Origin: Lingula anatina
Lineage: Eukaryota; Animalia; Brachiopoda
Direction: 5' to 3'
Assembly (NCBI GenBank): GCA_051362555.1
Contig: CM120646.1
Coordinates: 8,370,001 to 8,434,000, forward strand
Length of the DNA stretch: 64,000 nt
The translations under genes and the position numbers were made by a program. Numbering within the stretch: the first letter of the stretch is position 1; each line of letters begins with the position of its first letter. This document shows positions 20,791 through 58,584 of this stretch, piece by piece. Under the pieces are notes generated by a model, which was not told the origin of the DNA, did not search any database, and worked only from the letters and a program-made list of their open reading frames with translations.

Positions 20791-22082
20791 AGTTCTAAAC
20801 ATACGCTAAAATAGTTTTCATTTATCCTCTCCTCATACTAGTCCTATAGCAACCAAATTAAATTGTTTTATGACGTATTCGATGATAAATAAAACCTTTA
20901 TTACAAATCATTATGAACGGAAAATTAGCACATATTGACGGAAATGCAACTGTCCACTGTTACCTGTGTATAACAGATATACATAGAGATTTCGTATAAT
21001 TTCTAAACCGATTCAGATATTTTAAAACTTAAAGAAGATAAAGATTAATATAAATTGAAAAAGTTTTGAAAGATAAAATATACAATTAATACATATTTTG
21101 TATCAGAAAATGCATTCTTACTTATCATTCTTACAAATCATGTTAGTGACATTGTCATCCACTGCACGTGTATAGTTATTAACACAAACCTTGTTTATGA
21201 TGCATGGTTTCTTCAAAGTACTTTCAGTTAATTTGAGTGCAATTTCAGGAAGCTTTTTCACTCCGTTTTGAGTGACGCCGAGTTTATCACCCCCTAGCCG
21301 CTCATAGAGGCGTATCATTCAGTTAATGTGATTGCATTCAGCAAAAGTCCCTGCGGAGTTGGATCGATCTACGTAGATTCATTGGGAATGCGCTTTGTCT
21401 ATATGTTTGGCACTTGGAGATATTTGCTATCCGTGATTTTCCATCCGTATTTGCACATCGTCTTTCAAACTTTCGCAACATTTTTTTAAAACTTATCTTT
21501 CAGGTTTCTTTTAATTAGAGTAGTGCATTAACCATTTCAAAGTAGTTTATCCTTTAAAGAATTCACTAACAAAGAGCAGAGTTTAGAGGTTTTGAGATAA
21601 TTTTCCGTAAATAATGGTAATCAATCACCAATATTTCTCAAGCTTTTCAATTTTTCAAAACCAAACCAAGTCAGAAGCTTAGGGTTGCATTTGTTATTAT
21701 TTGAAAAAAATTGAACAATGCATTTGCTTAGTTTTTGTAGAAAAAGGAACAATTTCAAATGGCAAAATTCCGTCCGTAATGCAAAACGAATGTCACGCTT
21801 GCATTTTAAGATTTGCTGTGGTGTTTCCAGCAAGGTTCTGTTTAAGTTAATCAATCAATTAGTCAATAAATTCTTCATCAAAAGCATACTTTTTGTAGAA
21901 CTTGCACCCCTTCTAAAACAAAATAAGTAACATTACATAGCAAATTTTGGAAGAAACATATCTCCTCTCAAAGCAACAATTATTCCAAAAAACAAAAGGA
22001 GCAGTATGACGGTCTAAACACGTTGACGTCGATTTGTTTGATAGAATATGAACGTTGGAATGGTTTTCTTCCAGGCATCTTG

Positions 22083-22118
<36 letters not shown>

Positions 22119-23034
22119 GAGCCAATGCCAGTCAGTTATTTCATCCCTGATCAACGTGGAGTTTCCTTTCCAAGTGGCTGTCGTCGCCAACGGTGCTTTG
22201 AACTTTTCGGCCTACCGTGGTGTTTGCGCAGCTGTTTATGTACATGCTGATAACTTATTTGTATCAGATCCACCTCTTAATACTTTGGCTCATACACCAT
22301 GGTATTTTAAACGTGGCCGTGGCGTTAATTGCACAGAGATGGTAGAAACACAAAATGGACAAAACACAACCCACAGCGTTGTTGCTATTTGGTCCATGGG
22401 GGTTCACTTGCAGGAAAATATCCAGCAGTACAGAGAGGGTCTCAAGAGGCTCGAATCTTTCAAAGAAGAAATTAACAGAGAGCTGCTCGCCAGAGACGAA
22501 AAGGTTACGTATCGCGGCAAGACGTATCAACTTCGTGTTTTGCTTAATGAGGCTTTGCATTGCGCAGGTGGCACAACAAGGAATGGTTCCATGATCATGA
22601 CTCCAACGGCAACCAATCCAGGAGATTTCCGACGTTCTCGAGGGGAAGTTGCTTTCGCACCACCGACACATGCATTTTTATTTGTGGCATTTTGGTTTTC
22701 AACCTTACCATGAGCATTAAGTGTGAACTAAGCTCCACAGACTGCGCCAAAGCCGTAGAGTCTTAAAACACTTCAACGTGCATTGTTTTATTTTGTCTCC
22801 GTATGATAATTGCATTATGAAGATAATCTTGATAAGAACAAACGCGTAGAACGGAGTATACAATCTGTTTATTAAAAGTTCAATCTCAAACGAATTGATT
22901 ATTTGGTCGGTCAGCTCTGTAACATAAACGTGCTAACTCTGTAAGCCGCCATGCTGGAACACACGTGTATTATTCAAGTCGCTTACAACATTGTAAAATA
23001 AGAGGTGGTCGCTTAAGACAAATAAAATGTTACA

Positions 23035-32351: not shown

Positions 32352-32539
32352 TACAGCAGAATAAGAGGTTTCCTATTTGTAGATATAACACTGAGGCATC
32401 CGCAATGGTTTTTCTTTTTTTTTCTTCTCCATATCACAATAAGTTGAGAATTGATACCAGTACTTACTCTTACGGCAATGTATTTAGTATTTACACTCTT
32501 TCACGTTTAATTCCAAAATAACTTTGCATATACAGTATG

Positions 32540-32574
<35 letters not shown>

Positions 32575-33171
32575 GAAGGGGTTGGAGAATGTATGACTGA
32601 ATGCATTTGTACTTGCTCACTGGCTTGCACATGTGCAAGTGTGTGAGCGTCCCAAAGCAGGTGCACACTTACTGCTTGTAAATTGCCAAAATCTTGCCAG
32701 AATGCATAGTTTGGAATCTGCTCCATGCCTTTAGCACCCCGCACAAACCTCTGGTATGATAAGCCCACTATGCAGTACAAGGCCTTAAGAGAAATAAATC
32801 TAAAATTAAATCAAGTCAGTTATTGATCTTGGTTAATATTTGTGTCCACTGAAAGTCCATCTATAGGTTTTACTAAACATAAAATGTCCTTGTGTTCACC
32901 AAAGTGGCAAAAAAGCAGTTTAGTAACCATAAATTCATGTCTTGTGGGTTCAATAATAACCCCCTCCCCCCACTTCTTGATATCTTTATGCCAGTGCCAA
33001 GCCTTAAATTTATCATAAGTACTAACATGAATATGATGACAGATCCAGCACTTAGCCCCTGCAGTAGCTGGAACGACGGAACTTCTGTGCACACAGCGCT
33101 GTGGTAGTATTCGAACAGGTAATACACTCATCTGTCTTCTGGTTATTTTCTTCTACAACTTTACCATGACC
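32064..33171 (-). pseudogene. M6PR: Cation-dependent mannose-6-phosphate receptor, last three exons, with a 1-nt frameshift; upstream exons not found
   Basis: Exons 33171-33027 (GHGKVVEENNQKTDEC/YYLFEYYHSAVC...LSAGSVIIF; 145 nt where the phases need 146), 32799-32673 ([28 protein letters not shown]) and 32186-32064 (DGCDLVCRS...[23 protein letters not shown]). The last matches the recalled M6PR tail DGCDFVCRS...[23 protein letters not shown]. Confidence 0.88.
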
Positions 33172-37911: not shown

Positions 37912-40900
37912 ATGGAGACTAGAGCGAAGTTGTGTCTGGGGACTCTCCCCGTCCTTCTGGCCCTGATTTTGGGGTACTTCAGGCCCGATCTGACTCATGT
38001 TCTCCCTGGTATCCACAGCATCTGGAGCGATGTGACCCAGGCGCCACCGGACGCCGGAGATGTGAGCCAGGCGCCACCGAAGGGTCACATGCAGAAGTTT
38101 GGACTTCACGTGGACAAGGAAAAGGAGCTGATCGTGATGGACCATTTCCCGAGTCCAGAAGATTTTTACAGAGACCACATGCGGCAGTCAGTCCCTCTCG
38201 TGGTCCGAGGGTCGCTGAAACACTGGCCGGCCGTGGAGAAATGGAACAATGAAGATTATTTACGAGAGAAATTTGGTAACAGAGAGTTCACAGTGATGTT
38301 CAAAAAATCAAACGATCACAGGCACAAGTCACATATGACAATGAGCATGACAGATTTTCTAGAGTAAGTCTTTTTGGGTGTATTTTTTTTTTTTTTTTGG
38401 GGGGGGGGAGGGGTTATATATGCGCATAGTGATTTTATAAATTGTTTCCTGCACGTTTCATTGGTTTGTTAACAGAGCATTATAACAACAACAGTTACGC
38501 TTACATCTCCGAATTACTTAACCGTGATTCGGTATGCTGAATAATATGTCACGATGAGATACTTATTTAACTTGGTCATCTGATGACGTCATTGAGTCTA
38601 TCTCGATTCACAGCTTGTTTGTTTGTGCGTCCACATATATTGTATGTAACCGTTTAGTGGCCTACTGTCGCCTTAAGATGTTATTATTTCTAAAGAAATA
38701 TGTATGGTGACGAAGTGTGTGGGGGGGGAGGATAAGAAAAGAGACACTAGAATTTTTGTTGTAGGCACTGATTGGATGCTATGCATTTAACAGTTTGTTG
38801 GGTGAGAGTGAGAGAGTAATTGATCATTCCATCATGATGTACATTTAACCACCAAGGAAATTTAAACAGACGGCCATTGTCAATTAAAAAACGGCAGTGT
38901 CGAATGTAACTTTAATGGTTATGGGTATTCTATGTGCAGTTTTATACATTTCCTTGTATGGATTTCAAGAGGGTTTGGTCTTTAAAAAATCTCTCTCTCT
39001 CTCTTATTCTTTGAGTTTGTGTATGTGTGTGTTCAGAGGTAAATAGAAGAACTTTAAATTAAGCACACACACTCACACGTACACGCACACACACATACAC
39101 ATTGTTATTTATACCCATCAGCATATAATTCTCTCTTCATCTCCAAAAAGAATGCTTTCAGTAATTGACACCGAATAAACACTTAACATTGGGTATAGGA
39201 CTTAATCACCCAAAAAAGACTTTGGATGAATATATAATGCTATTCAGTTTTTCTTTTTGCAATTCAGTCGGTACCGCGATGAACATATCTATATGGACGC
39301 CACACTTTCCCCAGAGATGACGGAAGATCTGACTATCCCAAGATTCCTTGGTTGCGACGCCATCATGAAAATGGTATCGTCTGCTGTGTATTATTTCTTT
39401 TTTTAAATAAAAATTAGGTTAATATACTCGTTTTGTCTTACGAACCTTATCATTAGCATATTGATTAGATCGACATATATGCGGTACAGAACGATACGCC
39501 CGACTATTTTTTCAATTGTGGCCATCCTTCATACAGCTTATTAATTTATTATTATTATTAGTTTTTTTCAAGACCACTGGATCTGTGTACAATAGTTGCT
39601 CACAATTTGCAAAAGACGTCATATTAATTATAATAATTAATCATATTTTAAAAATTCCTTAGCTTAAACGAGATGTCTCACTATAGGCCTATAAATAACA
39701 AAGCACCTTGAGAAAATATGTTTATCCTTCTTTAGTAGCTTCATGTCACAGGGCGTTGTTTTGAAAATAATATCCCGCAATCAGCGGTGCGTAAATAACA
39801 TAAGAAATGATAGCGGTCCAGAGAAATACGGGTTTCCATAGAAAGTGACGGCTGCAAATGCCAGAAGTGATACTTAAGAAAAAAAGAAATGAAAACCACT
39901 TTCAATCTTTTGCTTCCTTTATGAGTTGTAAAACATTAACTGCTACGGTTCAAGTGCAATTTTTTGCAAAGTGTTAGCATTTACCATGTTCAATTGACAC
40001 CAATGTGATTCAAAACATTATTTGAACGAATGATATTAAACATGCTTGCAAATCTTTGAGCAACAACTTTGTGTTTGTGTGTGTGTTTTTTTTTTTTTTT
40101 TTTTTTTAGCAAACTTGAGATTTTTGAAATCACTATTCAGTTTATATTTAAGATCTTTTAACATTAAAATCTAAAACCCTCTTAGATTGATCTATTTTAT
40201 TTCATGCTTAGATGAAGCAGTTTGCACTATTCTTCAACGCCGGATGGTCCAGTACCTACATCCACGTGGACGCCACAGAGACGCTGTTTGCGCAAATTAC
40301 GGGTCAACGACAATGGATTCTGATACCGCCGGCCCATGGGAAATACCTATACGTGGACGATTTTAACTATCACAGAGGTAATATTTGAGAAAATGTCCTT
40401 TTATCTGGGATGGATCACCCATTGACACAGTGATACATATTGTAAAGTCTTTTCTCTTCTGGCTTACCGATATATACATGCATGGTCTCATGACGGACAC
40501 GTACCGCCTGATTCCTAACACACAGAATCATTACCACGGTACAAAATCAAACAGAAGCCTTGTTTAAAAAATACATCATAGAATAAAATTTATGTTAATT
40601 TTTTTCAATAATTAAGTAAAATTATTTAAATGAAATATCAAAATTTGTTCAATTCGTTTTAACATGTTTTTCATCCCGTAAAATATATATGGTTTTATGC
40701 CCTAATATTTAGAATGATTAATAATTGAAGTGGTCGAATAGCGGAAATAATCTTGAATTAAAGCCCCTCTTTAGGTGTTTTTCTCTAATTTAAAAATGTT
40801 TGGGAATTGCCTGTTTCCATTTTTTTTCTAAAATTTGACACTAGGTAGTATAGCCTTGCCCTTTATATTTATTTATTTACATGTTTGTTTGTGAATTCAT

Positions 40901-42940
40901 TTTTTGTGCATTTATTTATTAATATGCACCGTGTCGATCAACTTAGACACCATTTCATATTCCAGGGATCTCTCCAGTCGAACCGGAAGCCGTCGACCTC
41001 ATCAAATTCCCGAATATTTCTAAAGTCGACATCTACAATATCACACTGTATGAGGGGGATATTATCTACGTGCCCGAGGGGTGGTACCACCAAGTTCGCA
41101 CCATGGGCGGTCCACCTAACATGGCAATGGCTATTTTTATCAATTATCTACTTTGTTCGGAGGGAGGGCATCCACCAAATAGAACCGACGAAATGGTCAT
41201 GGAGCGATGCATCGCACGGAGGGAGGCCACGCCCAAAGGTGGGAAGTAAAAAGTATAGATAAATAGATTAATTCATTAATAGACACGTGAAAAATGAGAT
41301 GAATAAGAAAAATAAGATGAAAATGAATAAGTTTCACATTTTAACTCTGTTTCAGAAATTAACTGTAAGGAACGAATGGAAGATATGCCAATGCACGAAT
41401 TTATCGCCCAGTACAGTTATATCAACCCAGAAGCGATTGATGTGGCGTTAGAATTCGAATCACCAATGGCGCAGTTGAGGTCACATATAAGCACACTGAG
41501 CAGCGGGTTTGACAGTGAGTTCAATAAACATTTCAAAGATAACCTTATATTACTTTTAAGCACGTGCCTAGACTCTGCACCCTCGCAACACTGCAAAACA
41601 CACTCACACACGCACTATTAAATTATGGCCTCTCTCCCTCTCTCTATCTCTCTCACTCAGCACATAAATAAATAAATGCAAATAAATAGATTTTTGTGTT
41701 TGTTTGGCCTTGGGTGCAGTGTTTGTCTCATGTGGGTCTTCTTATAACCCAGTTGTGAAATTCCGCCTATCTGCAAGCCTAGATATGCAGGAATCAAATC
41801 ATACCGACCCAAATATGAACCACTACGTTAAAACCCAACACTTGAACCCGCGCAAACTCCGCCTGATTTCACGATTTTCTTTTGATTATATGTGAAAGTT
41901 AACATCTACTTAACATATATACTATTTTTTATCAGTGCCTAGCTTAGGATTTGGAGTGAGCGGCCAACCCACCGAGAAGGCGAAAATCTCTACTGCACAT
42001 GCGCTGCGACTGCGCTACAGGTGAATTAAATGGGAGAAAATTTAATATTTATTTTAATGCGCCTTTTTATCATTTCTTATATTGACAAAATGATTATCAC
42101 TGATTACTTGGAAGTGTATATGATGATTACCAGAGCTTCTTAAGCCTAATTAAGACATTTAGGTGTATCAAAGTTTTATTAGAATTGAATTTTTATTTCA
42201 GTCTCTTCGACACGGACCCAGATGATGAATCCGAGGAGATTCTAGGGACTATTTTAGCTTCCACTCCAGATGTCAAGCGAGAGGATGTTTTTATCGTCGT
42301 GAAGGTCCATCCTAGAAATTTAGGAAGGGAAAAAACTATCGCTTCTGTTCAAAGATCTATAGCTAGATTAAAAACTGACTACATTGATTTGGTACTTATT
42401 AAAGCCCCCTCTTGTAATGGTATGAAATTCAAGTGCGAAGCAGACGATAACCGTGGCACTTGGAAAGAATCTTGGGAAGCCTTAGAGGAACTGAACGAAG
42501 ATGGTAAAATTAGGTCCCTAGGCGTGAGCAACTTTAAGATGTCTCAGCTTCGAAAACTGATTGATTTTGCTAAATATCCCCTGTCCGTTGTACAAAGTAA
42601 TTTCAACTTGTACAACAGGAAAACTAAACTGCGTCAGTTCTGCAAAGACAACGGCATCGCGTTTATGGCGCATGGATTGATGGGATTTTGGGAGACTGAG
42701 AACGGCACACGCGAAAGCCCTCTCCTGTCCCACCCTAAGGTGGACCTTGCAGCCAAGAAATACCGCACAACCCCTGGAACAATACTGATACGATGGGCCT
42801 TAGAACAAGATGTTATAGTTGCGCCACCGTCGACTAATGTGGATCACATTGCATTTAACAGACACGCGTTTATGTTAGATATAGCAGATTCGCCCTGGGC
42901 TATTGATATGCTTACTGAATACTTTCCTCACGTAGATTAA
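37912..42940 (+). CDS. Signal/anchor + JmjC (cupin-8) dioxygenase + aldo-keto reductase-fold fusion protein, copy 1 (659 aa)
   Basis: Exons 37912-38363, 39268-39373, 40212-40377, 40966-41238, 41356-41514, 41936-42020, 42202-42940 total 1980 nt, all GT-AG and in frame. JmjC: PLVVRG...WPAVEKW...YLREKFG, TYIHVD, YEGDIIYVPEGWYHQVRT. AKR: TLSSGFDMPSLGFG, REDVFIVVKV, LKTDYIDLVLI, GKIRSLGVSNF. Confidence 0.92.
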
Positions 42941-43870
42941 GTAGTCATTGTTACATATGTGTATGGAGATGACATTTCTGGGTGTCAAGTATATGAGAAA
43001 AAAAGGAACGATGTAGTAATTTTGAAAAAAAATGAGTGAAGTTTATGAAGCCCTTTTCTGTAGTACATTCATATGAACTCTCTCTCTCTCTCACACTCTC
43101 TCTCTCTCTCTCTCTCTCTCACAGGACTGTGCATAGAGGAAACACGCGGTATATTTTTCACAAGGACGCAATATTGCGTCCTAGTTTACTGTGTTCTTGG
43201 TGAATAATGCTAATCAATATCAGTAAAAATGCCACTTGCTTTGAATAAAGAAACCGATTATTTTTTATTTTTTATTTTGTTTAGCACTTGTTTTTGCATT
43301 GTAACGATGGACTGAATTGGATAAAAAATATTTAAAGAATTTTAAAAAACAAATCCATAGTTTTCTACACGATGGAAGTATGAATATTTTTATTGCGCAT
43401 GTATGTTGACCTTTAAAGCTGGCTAGGATGCGCGGATAATTTCCAATCTTCAGTTAACGCCATTTAAACCGCACGGTGCTTAGTGTGCAGCACAGATTAC
43501 CATGGCAAGTGCTCAGTCTTACCTTGATTACAAAAAGTGATGAAAGTAGTACAAAATCTAAGCACAAGTTTGGGTTAAGCAGTTTTGTCGGAATAATATG
43601 GAAGTGCGGATAAAATACGGTGGAAGAATTTCAGTGGTGTATTTTGCACAGTAAGTCGGCTCCAGTACCTTTTTTACCCTTTAGTCCGAGAACAACAGCA
43701 ATACACACTCAGGTGTATTTGCTACATACAGTCATCACCCGTGAAATTAGATTGGCAGGTTTTCTTTTCAGAAACAGCGGTGTGGAACGTCTATTCAAGT
43801 GTCACTCAAGGAATATCAAGCATAAGGTGGGCGGGTGTGTTCTCATTCCTCGATGATGTTTACATGCAGT

Positions 43871-46800
43871 ATGGAGACTAGGACGAAGTTGTACGCGGGG
43901 ACCCTCCCCGTCCTTCTGGCCCTGGTTTTGGGGTACTTCAGGCCCGATCTGACTCAGGTTCTCCCTGGCATCCACAGTATCTGGAGCGATGGAGACGCCG
44001 GAGATGCGACCCAGACGCCACCGAAGGGTCACATGCAGAAGTTTGGACTTCACGTGGACAAGGAAAAGGAGCTGATCGTGATGGACCATTTCCCGAGTCC
44101 AGAGGATTTTTACAGAGACCACATGCGGCAGTCAGTCCCCCTCGTGGTCCGAGGGTCGCTGAAACACTGGCCGGCCTTGGAGAAATGGAAGAATGAAGAT
44201 TATTTACGAGAGAAATTTGGTAACAGAGAGTTCACAGTGATGTTCAAAAAATCAAACGATCACAGGCACAAGTCACATATGACAATGAGCATGACAGATT
44301 TTTTGAAGTAAGTCCTTTTTGTATTCACAAGTGAAGCATATACTCAGTGCATAATCACCTGCCCAATCACCAGACGCAAACCCCATTGAAAACCTGTTAA
44401 ATGAAATTGAAAATCAATTGGCAAAGGATGGTCCCTTTGCCAGTAATGCTCTGATCCAAAGTACCTTTAGAGCCTGGGCCAACATAACCCCCAGAATATA
44501 ACTGAACCTTTAACAATCTATGCCGGGAAGGGTGGTGGCCATATTAGCTATCTTATAAAAAGTTAATACTAACATAATAACATGCGTTTTGTTGGAAAAA
44601 TTAAAGCACTGTTCTGTAAATCTGTACTTATGATACTAACTTGGCATAACCACTTTTCAATAAAATACCAATTGAAAAACCTGACAAATCCAGCTGTTGT
44701 TCACCTTTAAGCAAAATTTTTCAATACTATTGTCACCCCACTCTACTCTCACAAGTCTAGTTTAATTTTTAAAGACATACTTCCTTAACAACGACCTAAA
44801 TTAGGCAGCAGTTGTTCAATGGCGGATCAACGGAGTACACCGCGGATCAACGGAGTACACCCCTTCCCCCTGCTCTAACTCTTCCCAAAATAGCATTACG
44901 AACAAAAGGCAATGACAAATATTAGCCCTTTTTCTATTTCTGTGCTACACATCATGGCAAAACTACCCCCCCCCCCCCTCCCCCAACAGAAAAATAAAAA
45001 TTCTGTAGCCGCCAGTGCCAATGGCCAAGTTTCTTTACGTAAAGCGTTGCACTGTAGGCGGGTTCAAGACACGACCCGGAAATAGACCCAGTGATGTCAT
45101 CAGACGATCAGATTACGAAACAAGGGATCACAACATTGTATAATAATTAGCCTAGTCGTCCTCTGGTGTTATTAGGCTCTTTTCGGGTCTTAGTTTGTTC
45201 GGCTTTGAAGATGTTTGAGATTTCCTTATTTTGATTAATAAACGACATATGACTTATACGCGTCGTGTAAGTGTAAATAACATTCCTTATCGACTATTTT
45301 GGCGCGAGAAGCAATTTTAATACGGTCCTGTTGTATGTTCGGATTACAAAGAACAGTAATTTTCCGTAACAAAACATTATGTCTGATGAAGGGATAGACA
45401 TTGTGATGTAGAAAACAGCTTAGTAAATAATTTTGTAGGTGAGCGTAAGGCGCAGGTGATGATAATATTTATTTGAATGACATTGTGTAAATGTAATTGC
45501 ACTCTTATTCTAGAATTCACGCTCTATTCTTATACAAAGACTATATGTGTGCTCATTGCGTAAGCACGTGAGCGTGTAAGTCTCTCTATATATATTTACA
45601 AAAAGAAAGAATGCTTTCAGTAAATGGCATCGAATAACATTGGGCGTAGGACAAAAGAAGACTTTGGATGAATATATAATGCTATTTAGTTTTTCTTTTT
45701 GCAATTCAGTCGGTACCGCGATGAACATATCTATATGGACGCCACACTTTCCCCAGAGATGACGGAAGATCTGACTATCCCAAGATTCCTTGGTTGCGAC
45801 GCCATCATGAAAATGGTATCGTCTGCTGTGCATAATTTCTTTTTTTTTTATGAAAGCTGGGTTAAGTTTGTAACTTTGGTATTTTTATGAATTTTTTATC
45901 TTTTTGTTAGGATCGTCCGCAATACTGGGGATAGACATTATATGATGATATCAAAACATGTCAGATCTAGAAGTAATTGCTCAATTTTTTCCAGTTCCGA
46001 CTAAATGAACAACTTGAATAAAAAAAGCGAACCCCAAGGGAATTTTTTAGAAGAATAATGTTACAACCTGGGTGAATGGAACGTTTTATTAGTGGAAGGT
46101 TCATATCAATTCACCTTCGGGGATTATCGAAAATGGCCTAGAGGCCGAAACCTTGGATTATATATGACATCTGTAAAGTAGATCTTCAGAAATGCATCAG
46201 TAATAATACTTATTAGTTGAAGGTTAGAACGAGTTGTGTTAAAATAAATGCATTAAGGATGCGGAGAGAGGGTGTGGCATGAACGTGGCTATCTTCTTTA
46301 CAGACCAAGATATACCTACATTGGGACATCTTTCTTAATTATAGACACATATCAAGAATTTGAGACATTCTTGTTGATGCTCAAGGGGGCTATCAGAACA
46401 TGTTGTCTGCACATGTGCATTTGTAGTGGAGTTTTAGTTTTTAAGGTATAAAGAGCAGGCTTAGAAATCCCACGAAACGCTATATCTCCTTACATAACTA
46501 CTACGTAATAAGGTGACTATATGGAATGAGAAGCTGTTGAAATAGGCGTTTTATTGATATGCAACATGTCTGTATTTCTTGGTCGTTTAAGAAGAAAACC
46601 ACAACCCCCTCTCTGCATCCTTAATAGAGGAAACAACACAGTCGCAGTCAGCAGAGAGAGGATAATATATAATCAGGAAATTTTTGTGGTGAACAGCTAA
46701 ATGAGTGGTTTTCTATCGAAAACTGACAGCCCCAGGAAAATGCAGACAGAACTTCATTTTCCCTTTTGTTGCCTTTGCTATTTAAAAAATGAAAGAAAAA

Positions 46801-48517
46801 AATTGTATTTGTTATCATTCGTCACAAGTAACTGAAAGATAGGCAAACATACCTCAGGCGATATTCTGCAAACTTAAACAAAGCGATTAAAAATATTATG
46901 ACAATAACTAAGCATGCTTTTTGTAAGTATTTTTATTAAAGTTTCTAATTACTAAAAGGGGTCTAAGATTAAGCCTCATTATCTATCTTTTATTTCACTC
47001 TTAGATGAAGCAGTTTGCACTTTTCTTCAACGCCGGATGGTCCAGTACCTACATCCACGTGGACGCCACAGAGACGCTGTTTGCGCAAATCACGGGACAA
47101 CGACAATGGATTCTGATTCCGCCAACCCACGGGAAATACCTGCATACGGACGATTTTAACTATCACGCAGGTAATACTCTGGACATTAAAATGCAGAATC
47201 TTCCTTATGTTCTTTCACAAATTTTCAGAAACTACGTTTAAAATATGACACATTTATATGTCCTTGAATTGCAGAAAATTTGTCAGTTTAGAATTGAAAT
47301 AGATGGGAAAACTCTCTCATTCGAATGCATGAAAACCTCCATTTTCTAAAAAAGAATAGAATTATATTTGCAAGGGTTCCCCTCTAAAATCTGGCTTTGA
47401 ATAACCCTACATGTACTTTTCTTTGTCTATTTATTTATTTTTCTGTCTGTGTCTAATTGCCTGACTGTCGATCTGATTGTGAATTCATTCATTCATTAAT
47501 ATGCAGGTCAATTTTGTTTACTCAATTTTAGCACATACTGACAAGAATATCACCCCCATAATTATTATACACCATTTGATATTCCAGGGATCTCTCCAGT
47601 CGAACCGGACGCCGTCGACCTCATCAAATTCCCAAATATTTCTAAAGTCGACATCTACAATATCACGCTGTATGAGGGGGATATTATCTACGTTCCTGAG
47701 GGGTGGTACCACCAAGTTCGCACCATGGGCGGTCCACCTAACATGGCGATGGCTATTTTTGTCAATTATCTACTTTGTTCGGAGGGAGGAGACACGTCAG
47801 ATGTAGCAGAGGCGGCGACAACGGCGTGCATCGCACGGAGGGAGGCTACGCCCAAAGGTGGGTTGAAGGTTGGATAAAGATGTCATTAAACATACCCATC
47901 TACATGTCAACTAACAGTCATATAGGGATGGGAATGTTTGATCACTTTAGTGTTTGGCGCGAAATCTTCATTATGTGATCAGGGTCCTTAGATAATGGAC
48001 TAAAACTGCTTTCAAACGTACAAGTAGTGTATGATTTCCGTAATTTAGTCTCTAGAGAAGCTCGGTTTAACATCCTTACTAGAGGCCTTGAAAACCTTAC
48101 TTGGTATATCAACTAGATGTAGTAATCATCCTATTGGCAGTCTTGTTAAACCCAGGACACTGGTGTATACAATACTACAATAGTGGTGAAAAACGTGAAG
48201 TAGTTTTTCCCATAACTACCAGAGTTTAGACTTGTTTTTTATGTACATGTATAGTGTGACTGCATTGAAAAAAAAAGCATCAATCTAATGAGGAAAGTTT
48301 GTTTAAATTTGGTAGAACCCTAGTTGCACATCCTTGTACTTTATTTCAGAAATCACTTGTAAGGAACGCATGGAAGATATGCCAATGCACGAATTTATCG
48401 CCCAGTACAGTTATATCAACCCAGACGCGATTGATGTGGCGTTAGAATTCGAATCCCCAGACGGAAAATTGAGGACGTACAACAGCACACTCAAGAGCGG
48501 ATTTGAAAGTGAGTACA

Positions 48518-48563
<46 letters not shown>

Positions 48564-49892
48564 AATACTGCGTCAAAGACAAAATGTTTGCCTCAGATCA
48601 TATGGACAATGTGACTTGCGTCAGCCGGGATCCATTTGGTGATCCACACTGACCCGATGGCTCCAGTTCGCCGTAAGGGTAGGGCTACTTGGTTTCAAAT
48701 TCCAATGGGAAATTGCATTTGTATTTTCAGTGCCTTTGTTGGGGTTTGGCGTGAGGGGTCAACCGACTGAAAAGGCGAAAATATCCACCGCGCATGCGTT
48801 GCGACTGCAATACAGGTGAATGAAATCTTTTGATTAATTTTGTTATGATAGATTTTTGTCATTGAGAATATAATGTATAATATTTATCACTTAGGATATT
48901 TAGGGTTAGATTTGCACAAGTATGCACATTTTTATGGCAGTGGTAGGTCTAACGTATCTCTGTTATTGGATTTATAGCTGTTTTAAATTGTAAAAAATGT
49001 TAATTTACAATTTTAGTATTAAATCAACAAAACAGATTTAAGAGCTTGGCGTGCAAACGTATGCACTTTATTTCCAACATTAAAAATTAACGTACATTGG
49101 ACTTAAAATGTTTTCGGGGAATCACAAACTTCAAAATCGATTTCTTATTTCAGTCTCTTCGACACGGACCCAGATGATGAATCCGAGGAGATTCTAGGGA
49201 CTATTTTAGCTTCCACTCCAGATGTCAAGCGAGAGGATGTTTTTATCGTCGTGAAGGTCCATCCTAGAAATTTAGGAAGGGAAAAAACTATTGTTTCTGT
49301 TAAAAGATCTCTAACAAGACTGAAAACTGACTACATTGATTTGGTACTGATTAAAGCGCCCTCTTGTGATGGTATGAAATTCAAGTGCGAAGCAGACGAT
49401 AACCGTGGCACTTGGAAAGAATCTTGGGAAGCTTTGGAGGAACTGAACGAAGGCGGTAAAATTCGGTCCCTAGGCGTGAGCAACTTTAAGATGTCTCAGC
49501 TTCGAAAACTGATTGGTTTTGCTAAATTCCCCCTGTCCGTTGTACAAAGTAACTTCAACTTGTACAACAGGAAAACTAAACTGCGTCAGTTCTGCAAAGA
49601 CAACGGCATCGCGTTTATGGCGCATGGATTGATGGGAGTTTTGGAGACTGAGAACGGCACACGCGAAAGCCCTCTACTGTCCCACCCTAAGGTGGACCTT
49701 GCAGCTAGAAAATACCGCACAACCCCTGGAACAATGCTGATACGATGGGCCTTAAGCCAGAATGTGACGGTCACTCCACCGTCGACCAATCTGGATCACA
49801 TTGCATTTAACAGACACGCAATAGTCTTAGATATAGCAGATTCGCCCTGGGCTATTGATATGCTTACTAAAAACTTCCCTCATGTTGATTAA
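43871..49892 (+). CDS. JmjC-AKR fusion protein, copy 2 (653 aa)
   Basis: Exons 43871-44307, 45710-45815, 47005-47170, 47588-47857, 48350-48508, 48731-48815, 49154-49892 total 1962 nt, in frame, same phases as copy 1. Confidence 0.92.
44817..45017. mobile_element. hAT-like MITE remnant
   Basis: caatggcggatc... / ...tagccgccagtg imperfect termini with internal poly-C. Confidence 0.4.
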
Positions 49893-51054
49893 GCAGAGGT
49901 GGTTGCGTCATTGCACAGAGATGAGCTTATGGCACAGGTCATTTGGCGGTCCCGGATAACCATATTTCTGTGGTATTTATTCTCATTCTAGAGGGACGTG
50001 CTCAATACGCCATCGCACAAACGTATATTTGCAGCTACTTTTCAAATTATAGAGCTTTCGGCATTCATAATTTTAATATATAATTTGGACTTGATAAAAA
50101 AAAGTCGAACTTTAAGCATACTTTTCAGATGAGATTGATAAGAGCTTCCTTGCAAAATGGAACATGTTCCAACTGCCCTTAAAGTTAACGAAAGAAAAAA
50201 ACGGTTCGTACGAAAAATAAACACGCTATTCAGACATAATGCATATAAAAAGAAACATTAGCAACTTAGCTTGAAAAGTTTTTATTGTTTCATTCGCGTT
50301 GCACATACACGCATTTTTAAATTTTGCTTTAAAAGGGTTCTTTGCTGGATTTTTTAAATGCCGTAATCTGAAAGGTCATTAATCGGAAATTTCCTTAATC
50401 TGTGGTCCAAATGATTAACGCATTTCATTCATGTATTTCTATTTTCAATAAACAGATAAGATTGAAAAGCTATCCTTGCTATTCACATCGCTTACTTTCT
50501 GTTGTGTTTTCTATAAAAGTGCAAAATTGGTAAAAAGTACGGAGTTTGAAAGCGTTAAGAATACTTTTTTCTTCATGACTTGTATCAACTTCAGTCTTTT
50601 CATACACTAACAACAAAGTATCATGATATATTTCATACTTTAATGGCTGAAATAAATTCGTTTCTTAGGTCTTTTTAACATCGAAAGATATGGGCCCCCT
50701 ACTGCAGCGATACAGCCTGTACCGGCACATTTTACTAATCTTTTTCTGTTGTGAGCCTCTCTATTGGATCCTGATTTTTGTGGTCAATATCTTAAGCCAG
50801 TCTCGAGAATTAAATATTCTAAGCATTAAATTGCTGAACAGTTGATACGTAATACTATAAGCACTCACCGATTGCTAAGGTATTGGGCCTTAAAAACGAA
50901 ATTGCCTTTTCGAGCCGCGGATATTTGATTAACAACGCCTAATTTACGTCTTAACCTGAGATTTCATTGTGCTCATATAAAAACGGTACAAAGTAACACT
51001 GACAGCAGATTTGGACGAATACTGAGTTTCCAGCGGTGGTGTTTAAGGGACCAT

Positions 51055-51266
51055 TCCCGTAACCCTATTGTACTAGCAGAATCGATTATCTCCGATGGGA
51101 TTCTCGCTAAACTGCATTCAGTTTAATCGTGGACGAAAGTTAATAACCCACCTAGCAGCTTCAGTGGGCGTGACAGAAATTTAAGTCGCTTAAACTAAAT
51201 GCAATTTAGCGAGGATCCCCTCGGAGTTAGATCGATCCTGCTAGTAGTACAATAGGTTTATGGTAA
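51055..51266. mobile_element. Palindromic MITE; related copies near 34225-34390 and 21300-21390
   Basis: cctattgtactagcagaatcgat...gggattctcgctaaa.tgcatt mirrored by aatgcaatttagcgaggatccc...atcgatcctgctagtagtacaatagg. The motifs tgcaatttagcgagaatcccctcg and ggagttggatcgatc recur at the other sites. Confidence 0.7.
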
Positions 51267-52017
51267 CCTTGTCTAATCCAATGCCCATTCGGGCCTCATC
51301 CGAATCTCTCATTCCAAAAAGGCTCCAGCTATGGAAGTTCTTTTGGAACTCAAGTGCGACGAGGGGGTTCTTGACAACTGAGGCCTTTAAGAGACTCAGA
51401 AGAGTGTGCATTCAAGGAGGGGTTTCTGCTCTCTTTTCGGAATCGAGAAAAGACTGTTGAAAGCCTCAAATAGTATGTTTACATTCATAACATTAAATCG
51501 CAGATTTAGAGGTTATTTTGGCGTTCGAATCATAAACTCAAGACTCGAAATCGCAAACGGAATTTATCGTTTACAAGGCCTGGTAGGCCTATATATCAAT
51601 CACAAAACAATTGAAACCGATGTATTGGCGGTAATTTTTGGATAATTTTTTTTAGATTCAAAATGGATTAAACAGTGAATAAAATAGGGAAGTATAGAAA
51701 GCGCGATCAGCATATTTTTCAATGATATATAGTTTATATTGATTAGTCAGAAGACAACAACAATATATGTACACGCTTACTGTTCGGTGTATTTGCAGTA
51801 CAAAATGCTTCCGTGGAGTTATGTTGGCAGTCTGTGAATGGGAATTAAATTTCATTTTGAATTTATAAATCAATAACACCATCTCTTTTTTTAAAACTAA
51901 AACATTGTGTTCAGGCACTATAAAAACACAGAACAGAACATGTTTATGGTATCAAAGTGATTGTTTTGATTTATCCAGTTATATTGTAGTAAGATCATGA
52001 GAAAAAAATGAAATTAG

Positions 52018-52204
52018 ATACTGGATCTTACGTTGAAACGGAGATCACGACGTTCCAACCTTATCAAAAGACCTTCAGTTGAGCTGATTTGGCGTTGCCA
52101 TCGGTGTCACGTGGTGACAGTCTCAGTTCAGCCGAAGAAGGCTCAGTCTATGCTATAGTGCGGTCGAAACGTCGTGATCTCCATTCCAACGTAAGATCCA
52201 GTAT
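52018..52204. repeat. Inverted repeat (43-bp arms) resembling Penelope terminal repeats
   Basis: 52018-52060 versus 52162-52204 with 4 mismatches; contains gaaga...cgaaacgtcg. Confidence 0.65.
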
Positions 52205-52282
52205 TAGTTTAATTTTGTCATTATCTATGTATATAATTGTGCGTTAAAACGATCAAATTGGAAATTTTATTACTAACGCAAT

Positions 52283-52828
52283 GCCGGTGTCACGTGTACG
52301 GTCCGTTCTGCGTGAACCATCCGTCCTGACCGATTGTACACGCAGCAGACGCGTGTATGAGCCGTTCCGTGAATGATCCGTTGTTATTCACCAGTACTGT
52401 TACATCGGCTAGTTCATTTCCTACCACATTATACATTTACTATGATAGGGATAAAATTCACGTGTTAATTGATAATTTTGATAGAGAATCAGCGTCAAAT
52501 TACAGTTCGACGCATGGATGAACCTACCGTGGACGGGCCGTCGTTATTCAGCTGCTACCTACTATATTAGTATTGATTTTACTAGGCTAGTGTGTTGATA
52601 TGACCACCTGAGGGAAACCGCAGTAGAGGTGAACATCTATAAGATATGAATACTTCTAAAGATTACGTTTGAATTTGCAGTATGTTTGTTTATTAAAGGT
52701 TAAGAATGTTTTGATGACTCTATATAGAGACGGACTGTACACGCCGGAAGTATCTCAGAGTTGCCTGCGCTTTGTGTGCATGAGCAGAACGGATGCTTCA
52801 CGCTCCGAGCGGTACACGCCACACCGGC
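52283..52828. mobile_element. MITE-like element with imperfect TIRs upstream of copy 3
   Basis: gccggtgtcacgtgtacggtc...gcgtgaaccatccgtcctg versus the reverse complement of cagaacggatgcttcacgc...ggtacacgccacaccggc. Confidence 0.6.
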
Positions 52829-53074
52829 ACGACCACATTTACCCGCAGAACGCACCGAGTGTCTTTGAAAAGGAAATAAGATGCACTATTTCACACTTCG
52901 GCAATCCTGTCTTTTGATGAATAAATGGGCACAGTCCTTCACTCAAAGTCCTTTTCAGAAACAGCGGTGTGGAACGTCATATAAACTTGTACTTTCCAGA
53001 ATAAGTACATGTAACTAGAGCATGCTTGCTATACTCTTAGTCCTTCATGCAGCTAAGGCGGAACAGTTAACACT

Positions 53075-54303
53075 ATGGGCACTAGAAAGACGTTCTACGT
53101 GGGGACTCTCCCCATCCTTCTGGCCCTGGTTTTGGGGTACTTCAGGTCCGATCTGACTCAGGTTCTCTCGGGCATACACAGCATCTGGAGCGATGGAGAC
53201 GCCGGAGATGCGACCCAGACGCCACCGAAGGGTCACATGCAGAAGTTTGGACTTCACGTGGACAAGGAAAAGGAGCTGATCGTGATGGACCATTTCCCGA
53301 GTCCAGAAGATTTTTACAGAGACCACATGCGACAGTCAGTCCCCCTCGTGGTTCGAGGATCACTGAAACACTGGCCGGCCGTGGAGAAATGGAAGAATGA
53401 AGATTATTTACGAGAGAAATTTGGTCACGAAGATTTTGTTGTTATGTGGAATAATATCACTGACCACAGACACAAGTCGGCCATGATGATGAGTATGAAT
53501 GAATTTTTGGAGTGAGTGGCAAGTATTTCTGTGTAAAGAGCATTTTATCTGTTTGGGGTAATTTTTCTATGAATATAGGACTTCAATCCCGGACATAAGC
53601 ATTCCTTTCTGGCTTGATATAGCGTGCATTTAATATGTTAATCCAACCTCATCTATTCATAATAGTGGTTAATTAGAGCCCATATCGACAAGCTTACACC
53701 TGTTCCTTTATGGAATTTTGATTGTTTTGGTTGTTTTGTTAATCAACGCATGGTTTATAGTAATTTCACAGTCCATCTCCCGATCTATTTGAACAGAAAC
53801 TTCCCAGCTCACGACACGAGTTCGTAATGAGTAACTCACAATACCATTTAAGAGGCTGATGCGCTCCTTCATTCAAACATGAATAAAAATCCGTTGAATG
53901 ATGTTATATAAGAGAACCTCAGCCCACTAAAAGCGTTTATGCATTATGCTGCTTACAGGGCGAGGATTTTTTTTTTTCTTTCTTTTTTTTTTTTTTGTCA
54001 GTTCATGCCATACAGTCGGTGTCTCGTGAAAAGTCATAATATCATTGTTGAGTTTTGACTTCAGCCACACTTGACGCACTAAGCTGTTGTCTCTCTCCTA
54101 TCGATAATGTCGCGTGCATTAGTGTGAATTTTTGCGTGATACACATTTATTTATCCGCACGTGCGTGTTATGCACGCGAATACACGCTTTAATAGAAACA
54201 CAAAGGAAGAACTCTAATACACACCTTTATAAATAGGCAGCCTTGCGTGTACACGGTCACGTATGTGCGTGTGTGTACATGTATGTTGTATGTGGGTGAC
54301 TAT

Positions 54304-54340
<37 letters not shown>

Positions 54341-57300
54341 TTCTCCTTCAATACTTTGGCTTGAGTATTTTGCTCGAAAAGGGATTGAGACTGCAGATGG
54401 AGACTTTCACAAAATGTGACTGATTGATTGCTTCAGATATCTTTTCGTATATGGGTCTGGTTGTGATCGAGGAAGGGGAGAGAGGTACTGCATTTTATTA
54501 AAATTCCATCATGAGGAAAGCACTGTCCTTCATTCAAAGATAAGTACTTCAAGATAAGTGACTAGATTTTTGACGGTGAAAAATTCAAGTAAACACACAG
54601 ATTGTAAATTGGATGTCTTGTCGATGAAAAAATTAATATTTATTTATTATTTTCAAACCTTCATTTTAGCCAGTACCGCGATAAGCATATATACCTGGAT
54701 GGCTTCGTGTCTCCGGCAATGTCCAAAGATCTGACTATCCCAAAATTCCTTGGTTGCGACGCCATAATTAAAAGGGTATCGTTTGATAAATGTTATTTTT
54801 GGTGTATTGTTGAAAATTTGATTGGCGTAGTAATTTTCCTTGTTTAATGAATAAAACTTGTCTTGTTGGAATCTTGGAATCAACATTAGTTTTCAATATC
54901 TGTTCAGTTTAATTTCTTTGTCTTATTTTAAGTGCCCTTACACGTTATTTACATTCGTATTTGGTAATTTCTAGAGGGTAAACCATCTACGCAAGCCCGT
55001 AGCCAGGGGGGTTCGGAGGATTCGAAAGAACCACCCTTTTTGCTTGGTTTTATTTAGGATTTTATGGTAAAAGGTCCACTTTTTCAGAAAACGAACCCCC
55101 CTTCTGAAATTGCTGGCTACGGTATATCAGCGCATTATATTTTTCTATTATAAATTTTATCAATAACAGAAACGTCCAAATTTATTTCAATGTGGTGTTA
55201 TGATTCAACAATTTTGTACAGAATAAATCGGTACACTGAACAATACTGACCAAAACCAATGCATTTCAATTTTCCCCAGGCGACACAGTTTTCGCTGTTA
55301 TTCAACGCTGCCTGGTCTAGCACATTCGTCCACGTAGACGGAACAGAAAACATGTTTACTCAAATCACGGGACAACGGCAGTGGATCCTGATACCGCCGA
55401 CCCACGGGAAATACCTGCACGTGGACGATTTTAACTATCACAGAGGTAATGTTAACTTGAGGAAGTGGGAGCCGAGACACAGGAAAGTGGGATCTCTGTT
55501 GATATTATATAAACATATATAACAGGGCCACAGCCAGGGATTTGATGGATCAGTATGAAAAATTAAAATAATGGAAGGATCTTTGGGGCTTGTTTCTGGA
55601 GTTTAGAGTTTGAATACATTTGATATTTGCCCAGGCTTGTTATAGATAAATTTCAAAGTTAAGTTATTTTGAATTGAAAATAGCACAAATGCGTTTTCTT
55701 TCTATCTAGGAAAGCGGTTCTTTAGACACCAGAGAACCAGTCACCAGGTTATAAGACGATAAACTAATCAGATTTTACGATCAATTTTTCTTTTTTTGTA
55801 AATTAAGTAATACGTGCTATTAATACTTCATTTGATTTTGGGCCAGGCAGACAGCGTGGATGACTTCTGAATATATAGAGATACGCCTACACCGGTAACT
55901 TTATCATTGCCTTGAAGCATCATCAATTATCTGGGAAAACAGTATATACTGCATTCATCAGTTAGTGTAATTCTGACGGATTTTTTTGTCCTCCATGATA
56001 GCGGTGTTATTTTTCGCATCCATGTATTCATACACGTATGTATTCCTCGCTGTTTCTTTTAAAGTCGTCTCTCATTCCATGCAATATTCCAGGGATCTCT
56101 CCAGTTGAACCGGAAGCCGTGGACCTCATCAAATTCCCCAATGTTTCCAAAGTCGACATCTACAATATCACGCTGTATGAGGGGGATATTATCTACGTGC
56201 CCGAGGGGTGGTACCACCAAGTTCGCACCATGGGCGGTCCACCTAACATAGCTGTGACGATCTTTATGGACTTCATCAGTTGTATGGAGAAAGGATACCC
56301 CGTCGATAAAACACAGGAAATGTTAACAGAGATGTGCATTGCAATGAGAGAGGCCACACCAAAAGGTAAGTGATACAATGTAGATAAATAAATAAACATA
56401 CAAGCATCGGTATAATCATAATCATAACTATAGAAAAGCACTCCGAGAGCGCAGACCTCCGCCAAGGCAACAAAGTCTCCACCCAATGCCGTTTCACACC
56501 TAAATTTTCATTCTATAATGATGTAGTTTTTTATTTTTGATTATTGATTATTTATTGATTATTGATAGGTTATTGATCCGGATCACCACTAAAAACTAAT
56601 CATCTGTTCCAATAGTTCCTGAAAATGTCATCAAAATCGGTCCATAACTTTTTGAGTTATGTTGCTGACAGATAGACAGACAGACAGAAAGACAGACAGA
56701 CAGACAGACAAACAAACAAACATGGTTGAAAACATAACCTCCTTGGCGGAGGTAATAATAATAATAATAATAATAACGCCTACATCTGATTCGGCCTTAT
56801 TAACTTATAGGTTCTTACAACTTCTGTCATCTTTATACACATAAACAGCCATGTTTTCCCTCAGAAATTACCTGCCAAGAACGCATGGAAGATATGCCAA
56901 TGCAAGAGTTCATCGAAAAATATGGTCATCTTAATCCAAAAGTCTTGACTTTGGTGCACGACTTCGAGACAGCAGACAGGCTTTATAACTTCTTTTCGAC
57001 CACACTCAAAAGTGGCTTTGCCAGTGAGTATTAGTCCTGGGTTAAGTCTACGTAACAAATGACATACCTAATGACTGTTATGTGTCTTTAATAATCAGGT
57101 GACGAAACTCAATATAAAAAGAGTGTAAATCGTTATGAAAAGCTTTTTGGCAGGAATACCGGTGACGCTTCAATTACAATCAAATGGACACACTAATTAG
57201 ATAAAAGTTGGATGTACAATTTGACTTTAATCTCTCTCTCTCTCTCTCTCTCTCGTCCAAAAGCTGTCAATTAAACATTTACAATATACAGTAAGGTAGA

Positions 57301-58584
57301 CACATTTTTATTAATATTCTAGTGCCGTCACTTGGATTTGGATTGAGCGGCCAACCGGTCGATAAGGCTAAACCAGCTGCTTCACACGCTATGCGAATGG
57401 GCTACAGGTAAAAGGGGGGTACAGGTAAAAGGTGGGGGGTTTTAGCTTTTTTTAAAATCCATTTAAATCCATTTGACAACCAGTGAATATCAAAGAAATC
57501 ACATATACCGTAGGTAATCTATGCGTTAGAGCACCCTAATGGAACCATTCAGTAGGAAATGAATGGTGCCTTGTGTTACTGGCCTCTTTTTAATGCCGAG
57601 ACGATATTGCGAAGTCTTGTGTAGTGAACCATAAATAGATTGAAAGATAATTTCTGACATGATGGCATAGTTTAAATCCTATTTAAGTGGTCCAAATTCC
57701 ATACAGTTACTCGAATATTCTGACAAAATGCTTAAAAAAATCATCCCTTATTATATTTAATATGAAAGATGAACTCTTTGTTATTGCTCGGTATTATTGA
57801 TTTATATGTATTTTTTACCACTGCAAAACTAAAATTATTTTACAGACTCTTTGACACGGACCCAGATGATGAATCCGAGGAGATTCTAGGGACTATTTTA
57901 GCTTCCGCTCCAGATGTCAAGCGAGAGGATGTTTTTATCGTCGTGAAGGTCCATCCTAGAAATTTAGGAAGGGAAAAAACTATCGCTTCTGTTCAAAGAT
58001 CTCTAACTAGACTGAAAACCGACTACATTGATTTGGTACTGATTAAAGCGCCCTCTTGTGATGGTATGAAATTCAAGTGCGAAGCAAACGATAACCGTGG
58101 CACTTGGAAGGTATCATGGGAAGCTTTGGAGGAACTGAACGAAGGTGGTAAAATTCGGTCTCTAGGCGTGAGCAACTTTAAGATGTCTCAGCTTCGAAGA
58201 TTGATTGGTTTTGCTAAAGTTCCTCTCTCCGTTGTGCAAAATAATTTCAACTTGTACAACAGGAAAACTAAGCTGCGTCAGTTCTGCAAAGACAACGGCA
58301 TCACGTTCATGGCGCATGGGTTGATGGGGGTTTTGGAAACTGAGAATGGTACACGAGAAAGCCCTCTATTAAGCCACAAAATGTTGGACCTTGCAGCCAA
58401 AAAATACCGCACAACCCCTGGAACAATAATGATACGATGGGCTTTAAACCAGAATGTGACGGTCACTCCAACGTCGACCAATCTTAACCATATCGCATTT
58501 AACAAGTATGCGCCACAATTGGATGTTGGAGAATCTCCATGGGCCATGAAAATGCTGACTGATTTCTTTCCCCATGTCAACTAA
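53075..58584 (+). CDS. JmjC-AKR fusion protein, copy 3 (654 aa, most divergent)
   Basis: Exons 53075-53511, 54670-54775, 55280-55445, 56093-56365, 56865-57023, 57323-57407, 57846-58584 total 1965 nt, in frame. Motifs TFVHVDGTEN, WYHQVRT and TLKSGFAMPSLGFG...MGYRLFDTD. Confidence 0.92.
54992..55126. mobile_element. hAT-like MITE
   Basis: ccgtagccag...ggggggttcg mirrored by cgaacccccc...ctggctacgg. Confidence 0.55.
56428..56756. mobile_element. Non-autonomous Helentron-like (HINE/DINE-type) element
   Basis: Subterminal acctccgccaagg (56455-56467) and its inverse ccttggcggaggt (56741-56753) within a terminal hairpin; internal (GACA)n; followed by (TAA)n. Confidence 0.6.

Follow-up and report, generated by a model that had tools for sequence, protein, structure and literature searches.

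JmjC oxygenases of the Cupin_8 family such as JMJD5, JMJD7, TYW5 and FIH are stand-alone hydroxylases of the cytosol or nucleus, and aldo-keto reductases (AKRs) of the prostaglandin F synthase, YvgN and xylose reductase type (PF00248) are TIM barrels. The two domains are each well known, and models in which they are fused are already present in RefSeq under automatic names. Here, a tandem triplet of such JmjC-AKR fusion genes is described from a window of 64,000 nucleotides of the brachiopod Lingula anatina (assembly GCA_051362555.1, contig CM120646.1, forward-strand positions 8,370,001 to 8,434,000; coordinates below are those of the window). With a probability of roughly 0.6, the encoded proteins would be luminal Fe/2-oxoglutarate (2OG) hydroxylases in which the AKR barrel is non-catalytic and serves to bind a substrate, ligand or partner.

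The Lingula JmjC domain has its fold and iron triad in common with JMJD5, JMJD7, TYW5 and FIH, but the Lingula proteins add a hydrophobic N-terminus, Cys pairs and a fused AKR, and an Arg replaces the 2OG-binding Lys. Their AKR shares the TIM barrel with the PF00248 enzymes at ∼30% identity, whereas it lies behind a JmjC domain, its tetrad positions read Asp, no Tyr, Lys and Lys, and a two-Cys insert follows the His position. A luminal precedent is JMJD8, a JmjC protein with a signal peptide that is located in the endoplasmic reticulum (ER) lumen (excerpts of PMC5684140); unlike the Lingula fusion it has no AKR, and it is likened to it by description, not by sequence. An oxygenase-type domain is also combined with an AKR in the Papaver reticuline epimerase REPI, a cytochrome P450-AKR fusion with an altered tetrad that performs an oxidation followed by a reduction (excerpts of PMC11522673). 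REPI may serve as an analogy for ancestral members with two active sites, but it contains a P450 instead of a 2OG oxygenase, acts in a plant alkaloid pathway, has kept the Tyr and is of unrelated origin. The same domain order, invariant Cys residues and AKR clade are found in uncharacterized JmjC-AKR(-ShK)(-PQQ-like propeller) models of sponges, cnidarians, hemichordates and amphioxus, most of which keep both active sites, whereas Lingula lacks the AKR chemistry. As supposed in an earlier note on this DNA, no characterized counterpart was found: targeted full-text literature searches, with subscription literature outside their scope, yielded no description of the architecture.

Three tandem genes encode JmjC-AKR fusion proteins

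Comparison of the window with itself revealed a threefold repeat of seven homologous blocks at 37.9-58.6 kb, and no fourth copy of the gene within the 64 kb. The three spliced seven-exon genes described in the earlier note could be confirmed, all on the + strand: copy 1 (37912..42940) encodes 659 amino acids (aa), copy 2 (43871..49892) 653 aa and copy 3 (53075..58584) 654 aa. GT..AG borders were present in 18 of 18 introns, the phases (2,0,1,1,1,2) are identical in the three copies and there are no internal stops. Pairwise identity among the three proteins is 77-90%. Three Lingula anatina RefSeq proteins, uncharacterized or automatically named, match the models with 98.0-98.6% identity (98.5% for copy 1 with XP_013421570.1, 98.0% for copy 3 with the LOC106181661 protein).

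Copy 1 comprises a hydrophobic N-terminal segment, the JmjC domain, a linker and an AKR pseudoenzyme. Exon 1 (37912..38363) encodes the segment, which resembles a signal peptide or anchor, and the start of Cupin_8, and is followed by exon 2 (39268..39373), whose splice to exon 3 is present in RNA. The Fe ligands His204 and Asp206 lie in exon 3 (40212..40377), together with Arg219 at the position of the 2OG-binding Lys, and His283, the distal Fe ligand, lies in exon 4 (40966..41238), with which the JmjC domain ends. Exon 5 (41356..41514) contains the linker, the invariant Cys336 and the first AKR strand and ends inside a Met codon; exon 6 (41936..42020) contributes the glycine loop and first helix of the AKR. 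In exon 7 (42202..42940), which encodes the barrel, Asp417 and Lys448 are kept, the catalytic Tyr is missing, Lys481 stands in place of His and Cys485 and Cys492 form the insert. Cupin_8 scored above the Pfam cut-off in exons 1, 3 and 4 of copy 1, and Aldo_ket_red matched exon 7 of all three copies with E ∼1e-36.

The exons of copy 2 are located at 43871-44307, 45710-45815, 47005-47170, 47588-47857, 48350-48508, 48731-48815 and 49154-49892, and those of copy 3 at 53075-53511, 54670-54775, 55280-55445, 56093-56365, 56865-57023, 57323-57407 and 57846-58584. Intron 4, over which the JmjC part is spliced to the linker and AKR part, spans 47858..48349 in copy 2 and 56366..56864 in copy 3. Exon 2 and its surroundings (39212-39404 in copy 1, 45654-45846 in copy 2) probably represent a recent gene-conversion tract: the exon is 100% identical and the flanking intron 98%, while the remaining exons of these copies are 79-95% identical and most of their intron sequence could not be aligned.

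The JmjC half showed ratios of nonsynonymous to synonymous substitution of 0.31-0.33 (Nei-Gojobori, three copy pairs), the AKR half ratios of 0.22-0.25. Purifying selection acts on both, and more strongly on the AKR half.

RNA reads connect the two domains

Four RNA runs (X1, X4, X7 and X9) were mapped on copies 1 and 2, between which reads cross-map, and four other runs on copy 3. The junction of exons 4 and 5 in copy 2 (47855>48348, GT..AG) was spanned by 141 reads in three of the four runs (5/0/89/47 in X1/X4/X7/X9). Read depth on exon 4 and then exon 5 was 108 and 127 in X7, 47 and 82 in X9, and 17 and 14 in X1, and no pile-up of read starts or ends was observed at this border in the four runs. 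Further junctions were spanned between exons 6 and 7 of copy 2 (1/0/44/27 reads in the same runs) and between exons 5 and 6 of copy 1 (2/0/22/24). Among the junctions listed, five of the six of copy 2 were present in RNA, and that of exons 5 and 6 appeared as loose ends at 48731. The stranded run X1 indicated transcription from the + strand. For copy 3, five reads with two different starts spanned the exon 4-5 junction in one of four runs; most of the remaining coverage consisted of reads diverging from the copy 3 sequence and exons 5 and 6 were barely covered, which suggests that copy 3 is weakly expressed in the sampled runs. The exon 4-5 junction of copy 1 was absent among those listed. Splicing across the fusion is established for copy 2 and weakly supported for copy 3, and we infer it for copy 1. 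Cross-copy and backward joints in the mapping on copies 1 and 2 were dismissed as paralog mis-placement, because exon 2 is identical in both.

Intron 5 indeed splits a Met codon as A|TG. The earlier note took this as proof against a separate AKR gene, for which it is insufficient, because exon 5 contains in-frame ATGs further upstream and read-through of intron 4 meets a stop after 2-6 codons in all three copies; the junction reads settle the question instead. ATTAAA is found at 47885 in intron 4 of copy 2, and AATAAA at 56387 in that of copy 3, directly after the read-through stop. A JmjC-only isoform ending in intron 4 of copy 3 is possible, where local reads are confounded by a repeat.

Opposite halves lack catalytic residues in Lingula and medusozoans

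Catalytic positions were compared in 44 aligned rows, comprising 11 from Lingula, 7 from a medusozoan clade (three named genera) and 26 others. Positions were mapped via solved AKRs and JMJD5, using the JMJD5 ligand roles (excerpts of PMC9712658) and the Asp-Tyr-Lys-His (DYKH) tetrad of AKRs (excerpts of PMC11522673) as references. With 116.6 bits against a cut-off of 27.4, protein P0003 belongs to the Cupin_8 oxygenases. The iron triad HxD..H, aligned to the JMJD5 ligands, is present in all 11 Lingula rows, as is the Ser/Thr of the 2OG pocket, a hydroxyl residue three positions before the first His.

The Aldo_ket_red profile and a (beta/alpha)8 barrel place the C-terminal half of the Lingula proteins in the AKR fold. 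None of the 11 rows, however, has the DYKH tetrad of a catalytic AKR: Lys is present in 11 and Asp in 10, but Tyr and His in none, the latter being replaced by Lys (8), Gln (2) or Arg (1). No Tyr occurs within D+2..D+9 of the Asp position in any of them. In the cofactor site of the triplet, Ser-Asn, Gln and the terminal Asn are retained, and the residues that we take to be the nicotinamide-stacking Tyr, the phosphate-binding Lys/Arg and the adenine-binding Glu are replaced, the latter two also in intact relatives. The stacking Tyr is His or Arg in Lingula, and the phosphate-binding Lys is Pro or Thr in the triplet. The replacement motifs of the AKR half recur in those 8 of the 11 Lingula paralogs that are only ∼45-53% identical to copy 3. 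Together with the stronger constraint on the AKR half, this recurrence argues for a conserved non-catalytic role of the AKR. The earlier note had offered two roles for the barrel; coupling of a second step is unlikely for the Lingula genes, because Tyr and His are missing in all 11 paralogs, and presentation or binding of a substrate is favored.

In the medusozoan clade, HxD is present in none of the seven rows and the JmjC domain has very long branches, while AKR Tyr, Lys and His are kept in all seven and Asp in six (Glu in one). One of the 26 other rows has no JmjC domain; the triad and the 2OG-binding Lys are found in the remaining 25, of which 23 have both sites complete, the exceptions being a gap at His in one model and a His at the Tyr position in another. 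Judged from the aligned residues, opposite halves have lost catalytic residues, the AKR in Lingula and the JmjC domain in the medusozoans.

Predicted structure and location

For the RefSeq protein that corresponds to copy 3, AlphaFold with an input of 38 sequences gave a mean predicted local distance difference test (pLDDT) of 83 and a predicted template modeling score (pTM) of 0.56, compared with 73 and 0.50 when 12 sequences were used. The model has two confident, apparently well-folded domains joined by a low-confidence linker (residues 357-369); the domain interface that the earlier note had hoped to obtain in this way is not fixed. In the fold search, the AKR half reached Z 33.7 (root mean square deviation (rmsd) 2.0, 261 aligned residues). 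JMJD5, JMJD7, TYW5 and FIH matched the JmjC half with Z 20-23, and JMJD5 was the best match both in sequence (E 2e-18) and in fold (Z 22.8, rmsd 2.8, 225 aligned). None of the 50 chains listed spans both domains. A complex prediction of the JmjC half with the AKR half, made without alignments, scored 0.09 and counts neither for nor against an interaction.

All three copies have a basic N-terminus followed by a hydrophobic segment (15-residue window, 2.0-2.4) and 4-5 N-glycosylation sequons, and hydropathy gave no second hydrophobic stretch. An N-terminal hydrophobic segment is carried by most family members, and 11 of the 44 rows, none from Lingula, end in KDEL or K-x-E-L. The hydrophobic N-terminus, the sequons, the invariant Cys pairs and the KDEL-like ends of relatives point to a luminal location. 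These secretory-pathway signals and the reciprocal loss of domain chemistry had been missed by the earlier note.

The fusion occurs in five animal phyla and is expanded in Lingula

When exon 7 was compared with longer proteins, 16 matches were obtained, 14 with both Pfam domains, of which 9 were from Lingula, and an alignment search added two more Lingula models. In total, 11 Lingula JmjC-AKR genes were counted, the three in the window and eight further RefSeq models; as the count derives from RefSeq proteins, the number is at least 11. The JmjC-AKR region of a coral protein gave 39 matches (589-1875 aa). Members were identified in sponges (Sycon, two in Oscarella, Corticium), Anthozoa (Pocillopora, Stylophora, Acropora, Montipora, Oculina, Actinia, Paramuricea, Dendronephthya), Medusozoa (Sanderia, Hydra, Hydractinia), Hemichordata (Saccoglossus, Ptychodera, Glandiceps) and amphioxus (Branchiostoma), so that the fusion is known from gene models or transcript-length contigs of five animal phyla. 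Word-seeded protein searches, which are weak as evidence of absence, found no member in molluscs, annelids, echinoderms, arthropods or vertebrates.

Many members carry a C-terminal PQQ-like beta-propeller (21 of 33 non-Lingula rows), some an ShK domain and those of amphioxus a second AKR; the Lingula proteins have none of these. In the Branchiostoma proteins P0059-P0063 the order is JmjC-AKR-AKR-propeller-KDEL, with the AKR tandemly duplicated. One AKR-propeller cluster (65 members, score 0.77) was found in the ESM Atlas and is regarded as a lead only. A bacterial origin considered for the AKR-propeller open reading frames (ORFs) P0080, P0081, P0084 and P0085 was ruled out for two of the four; the clusters hold full-length Corticium and Oscarella genes.

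An AKR-seeded scan of prokaryote genomes yielded at least 80 loci matching in the AKR region only, with 28-35% identity among the matches listed; a metagenome scan was likewise AKR-seeded, and no sponge genomic contig was obtained among the matches listed. A midpoint-rooted AKR tree with limited outgroups was calculated from 48 rows: 28 fused AKRs chosen to represent the 44 aligned rows, 6 AKRs of eukaryote type without fusion and 14 bacterial-type or nematode AKRs. All 28 fused AKRs fall together on one side of a branch (98/84) and are sister to the 6 unfused ones, and both groups are separated from the other 14 (100/99). With an AKR from the two-Cys-insert clade behind its JmjC domain, the Lingula triplet belongs to this metazoan fusion family. 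Cys180, Cys336, Cys485 and Cys492 are conserved in 43 of 43 non-gap rows.

The unfused sister AKRs come from metagenome loci and have the two-Cys insert, mostly with a signal anchor, ShK domain or membrane segments. Four of them (L002:5368-6846, L003:234-1706, L004:5407-6864 and L008:611-1723), with an N-terminal signal anchor, in some cases ShK, an intact tetrad and a microbial-eukaryote appearance, apparently represent an undescribed secretory AKR family. A 964-aa ORF at L006:860-3751 has the same AKR type behind a multi-pass membrane region without Pfam match and ends in the HDEL-like HGEL.

ORF fragments of Corticium break exactly at the positions of Lingula introns 5 and 6, with matching read-through residues, and those of Oscarella match one Lingula intron position. 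Two intron positions are probably common to Lingula and a sponge, as read at the protein level from these fragments. A single uninterrupted Corticium ORF of 473 aa spans the anchor, JmjC domain, linker and first AKR strand. The fusion would be at least as ancient as the animals themselves. A divergent, Gly/Ser-rich JmjC-AKR fusion (P0082, P0087-P0092) branches outside the animal members in the AKR tree (P0082 and P0087) and may be non-animal; if so, the fusion predates animals. In both the JmjC and the AKR tree, the 11 Lingula genes form one clade (100/100), and their expansion is therefore regarded as Lingula-specific. Of the earlier proposal of a lineage-specific, expanded fusion, the expansion stands and the restriction to one lineage does not: the architecture is widespread, although no characterized member was found.

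Other features of the window

Exon(s) of a mannose-6-phosphate receptor lie on the opposite strand at 32487-33152 (-), ∼4.8 kb upstream of the triplet. An ERG2/sigma-1 receptor exon was found at 7834-8304 (-), near a 300-nucleotide exact direct repeat (8957-9256 and 10372-10671), and an exon with a trypsin-inhibitor-like (TIL) domain at 1732-2256 (-). Cys-rich, Somatomedin-B-like ORF pieces (weak Pfam match) at 13438-16400 (+), which presumably resemble an adhesion-type G protein-coupled receptor, are overlapped by an element with ∼190-nucleotide inverted repeats and Tc1-like remnants (14790-17457). Broken fragments of a reverse transcriptase of the long interspersed element type are located at 19642-20711 (-) and an open frame of 222 aa without Pfam match at 22045-22710 (+).

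Discussion

The retained iron triad and 2OG-pocket hydroxyl suggest that the Lingula JmjC domain is an active oxygenase, with a protein or glycoconjugate as the candidate substrate, and an anionic ligand may be guessed for the AKR pocket, which holds two lysines and an acidic loop. Several points weigh against a luminal hydroxylase with a non-catalytic barrel. The 2OG-binding Lys, present in 25 of 25 intact relatives, is Arg in all 11 Lingula rows and the Asn near 2OG is Thr or Ile in 10 of them, which may leave the oxygenase modified or of low activity. Part of the AKR cofactor site (Ser-Asn, Gln and Asn) survives in most rows, and AKRs with non-canonical tetrads can remain active, as for Papaver DRR (DYMP/DYML/DYNP), although with Tyr kept (excerpts of PMC11522673). 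The location is predicted from hydropathy and sequons, the relative placement of the domains is not fixed by a model with a pTM of only 0.56, and the probable intron match with the sponge was taken from ORF fragments, at the protein level.

The Lingula proteins could still be bifunctional if the non-canonical AKR site, with its Asp, two Lys and acidic loop, transferred hydride to an activated imine or carbonyl supplied by the JmjC half, in the manner of oxidase-AKR epimerases. The mostly retained Asp, Lys, Ser-Asn, Gln and terminal Asn, the stronger selection on the AKR half and the activity of DRR and REPI despite changed tetrads would agree with this, but the general-acid Tyr is missing in all 11 paralogs, whereas all active variants in the excerpts of PMC11522673 keep it, and the stacking Tyr and phosphate-binding Lys are replaced as well; such activity is considered unlikely. 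The changed 2OG pocket of nearly all Lingula paralogs and the long stems (1.04 and 1.07) leading to Lingula in the two domain trees would also fit proteins with two non-catalytic halves that act as luminal or secreted binding, chaperone or matrix proteins, comparable to ER-luminal JMJD8 with its proposed role in complex assembly and folding (excerpts of PMC5684140). This appears quite improbable, as the triad and pocket hydroxyl are retained in 11 of 11 rows, while genuine JmjC decay, as in the medusozoan clade, is accompanied by loss of HxD in seven of seven and by very long branches.

It is very hard to maintain that JmjC-only products, ending at the stop in intron 4, dominate and that the AKR exons form a minor or separate transcript. 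The hexamers in intron 4 of copies 2 and 3, the in-frame ATGs of exon 5, the absence of the copy 1 exon 4-5 junction among those listed and the sparse coverage of exons 5 and 6 in copy 3 are set against the 141 spanning reads of copy 2, its read depth, which stays level between exons 4 and 5 without pile-up at the border, and the same fusion in five phyla, including the uninterrupted sponge ORF.

For the favored luminal hydroxylase with its binding barrel, a likely history starts from a bifunctional ancestor in early animals, whose JmjC domain would have oxidized a substrate to a carbonyl that the AKR then reduced; this coupling is suggested by analogy to REPI. The Lingula line would have retained the oxygenase chemistry, given up the C-terminal beta-propeller and multiplied to at least 11 genes, its barrel losing Tyr and His to become a binding or scaffold module, and the medusozoan clade would have kept the reductase chemistry. 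A more specific version is put forward tentatively and is rather doubtful as a whole: the ancestor would have been an ER-luminal 2OG oxygenase and NAD(P)H reductase, in many cases extended by ShK and a beta-propeller, for redox-coupled modification of secreted proteins or glycans, for example oxidation followed by stereo-inverting reduction; its halves would have been inactivated oppositely, and in Lingula the dead barrel would have become the anion-binding module of a matrix oxygenase. A role in the shell is unsupported, because cupin, JmjC and aldo-keto terms are absent from the portions considered of the publication on the Lingula genome (main text with one supplement, PMC4595640) and of a shell-proteome study from 2026 (main text, PMC13425148).

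For the Lingula models, which lack the AKR catalytic residues, the automatic labels 'D-xylose reductase-like' and 'prostaglandin F synthase' are corrected. The members predicted to have both activities, the oxygenase only or the reductase only offer a natural comparison set for finding the substrate and for the origins of pseudoenzymes. The JmjC-AKR proteins apparently constitute an undescribed enzyme family, probably ancestral to all animals, that would place a JmjC oxygenase together with an AKR in the secretory pathway, an unusual place for either.

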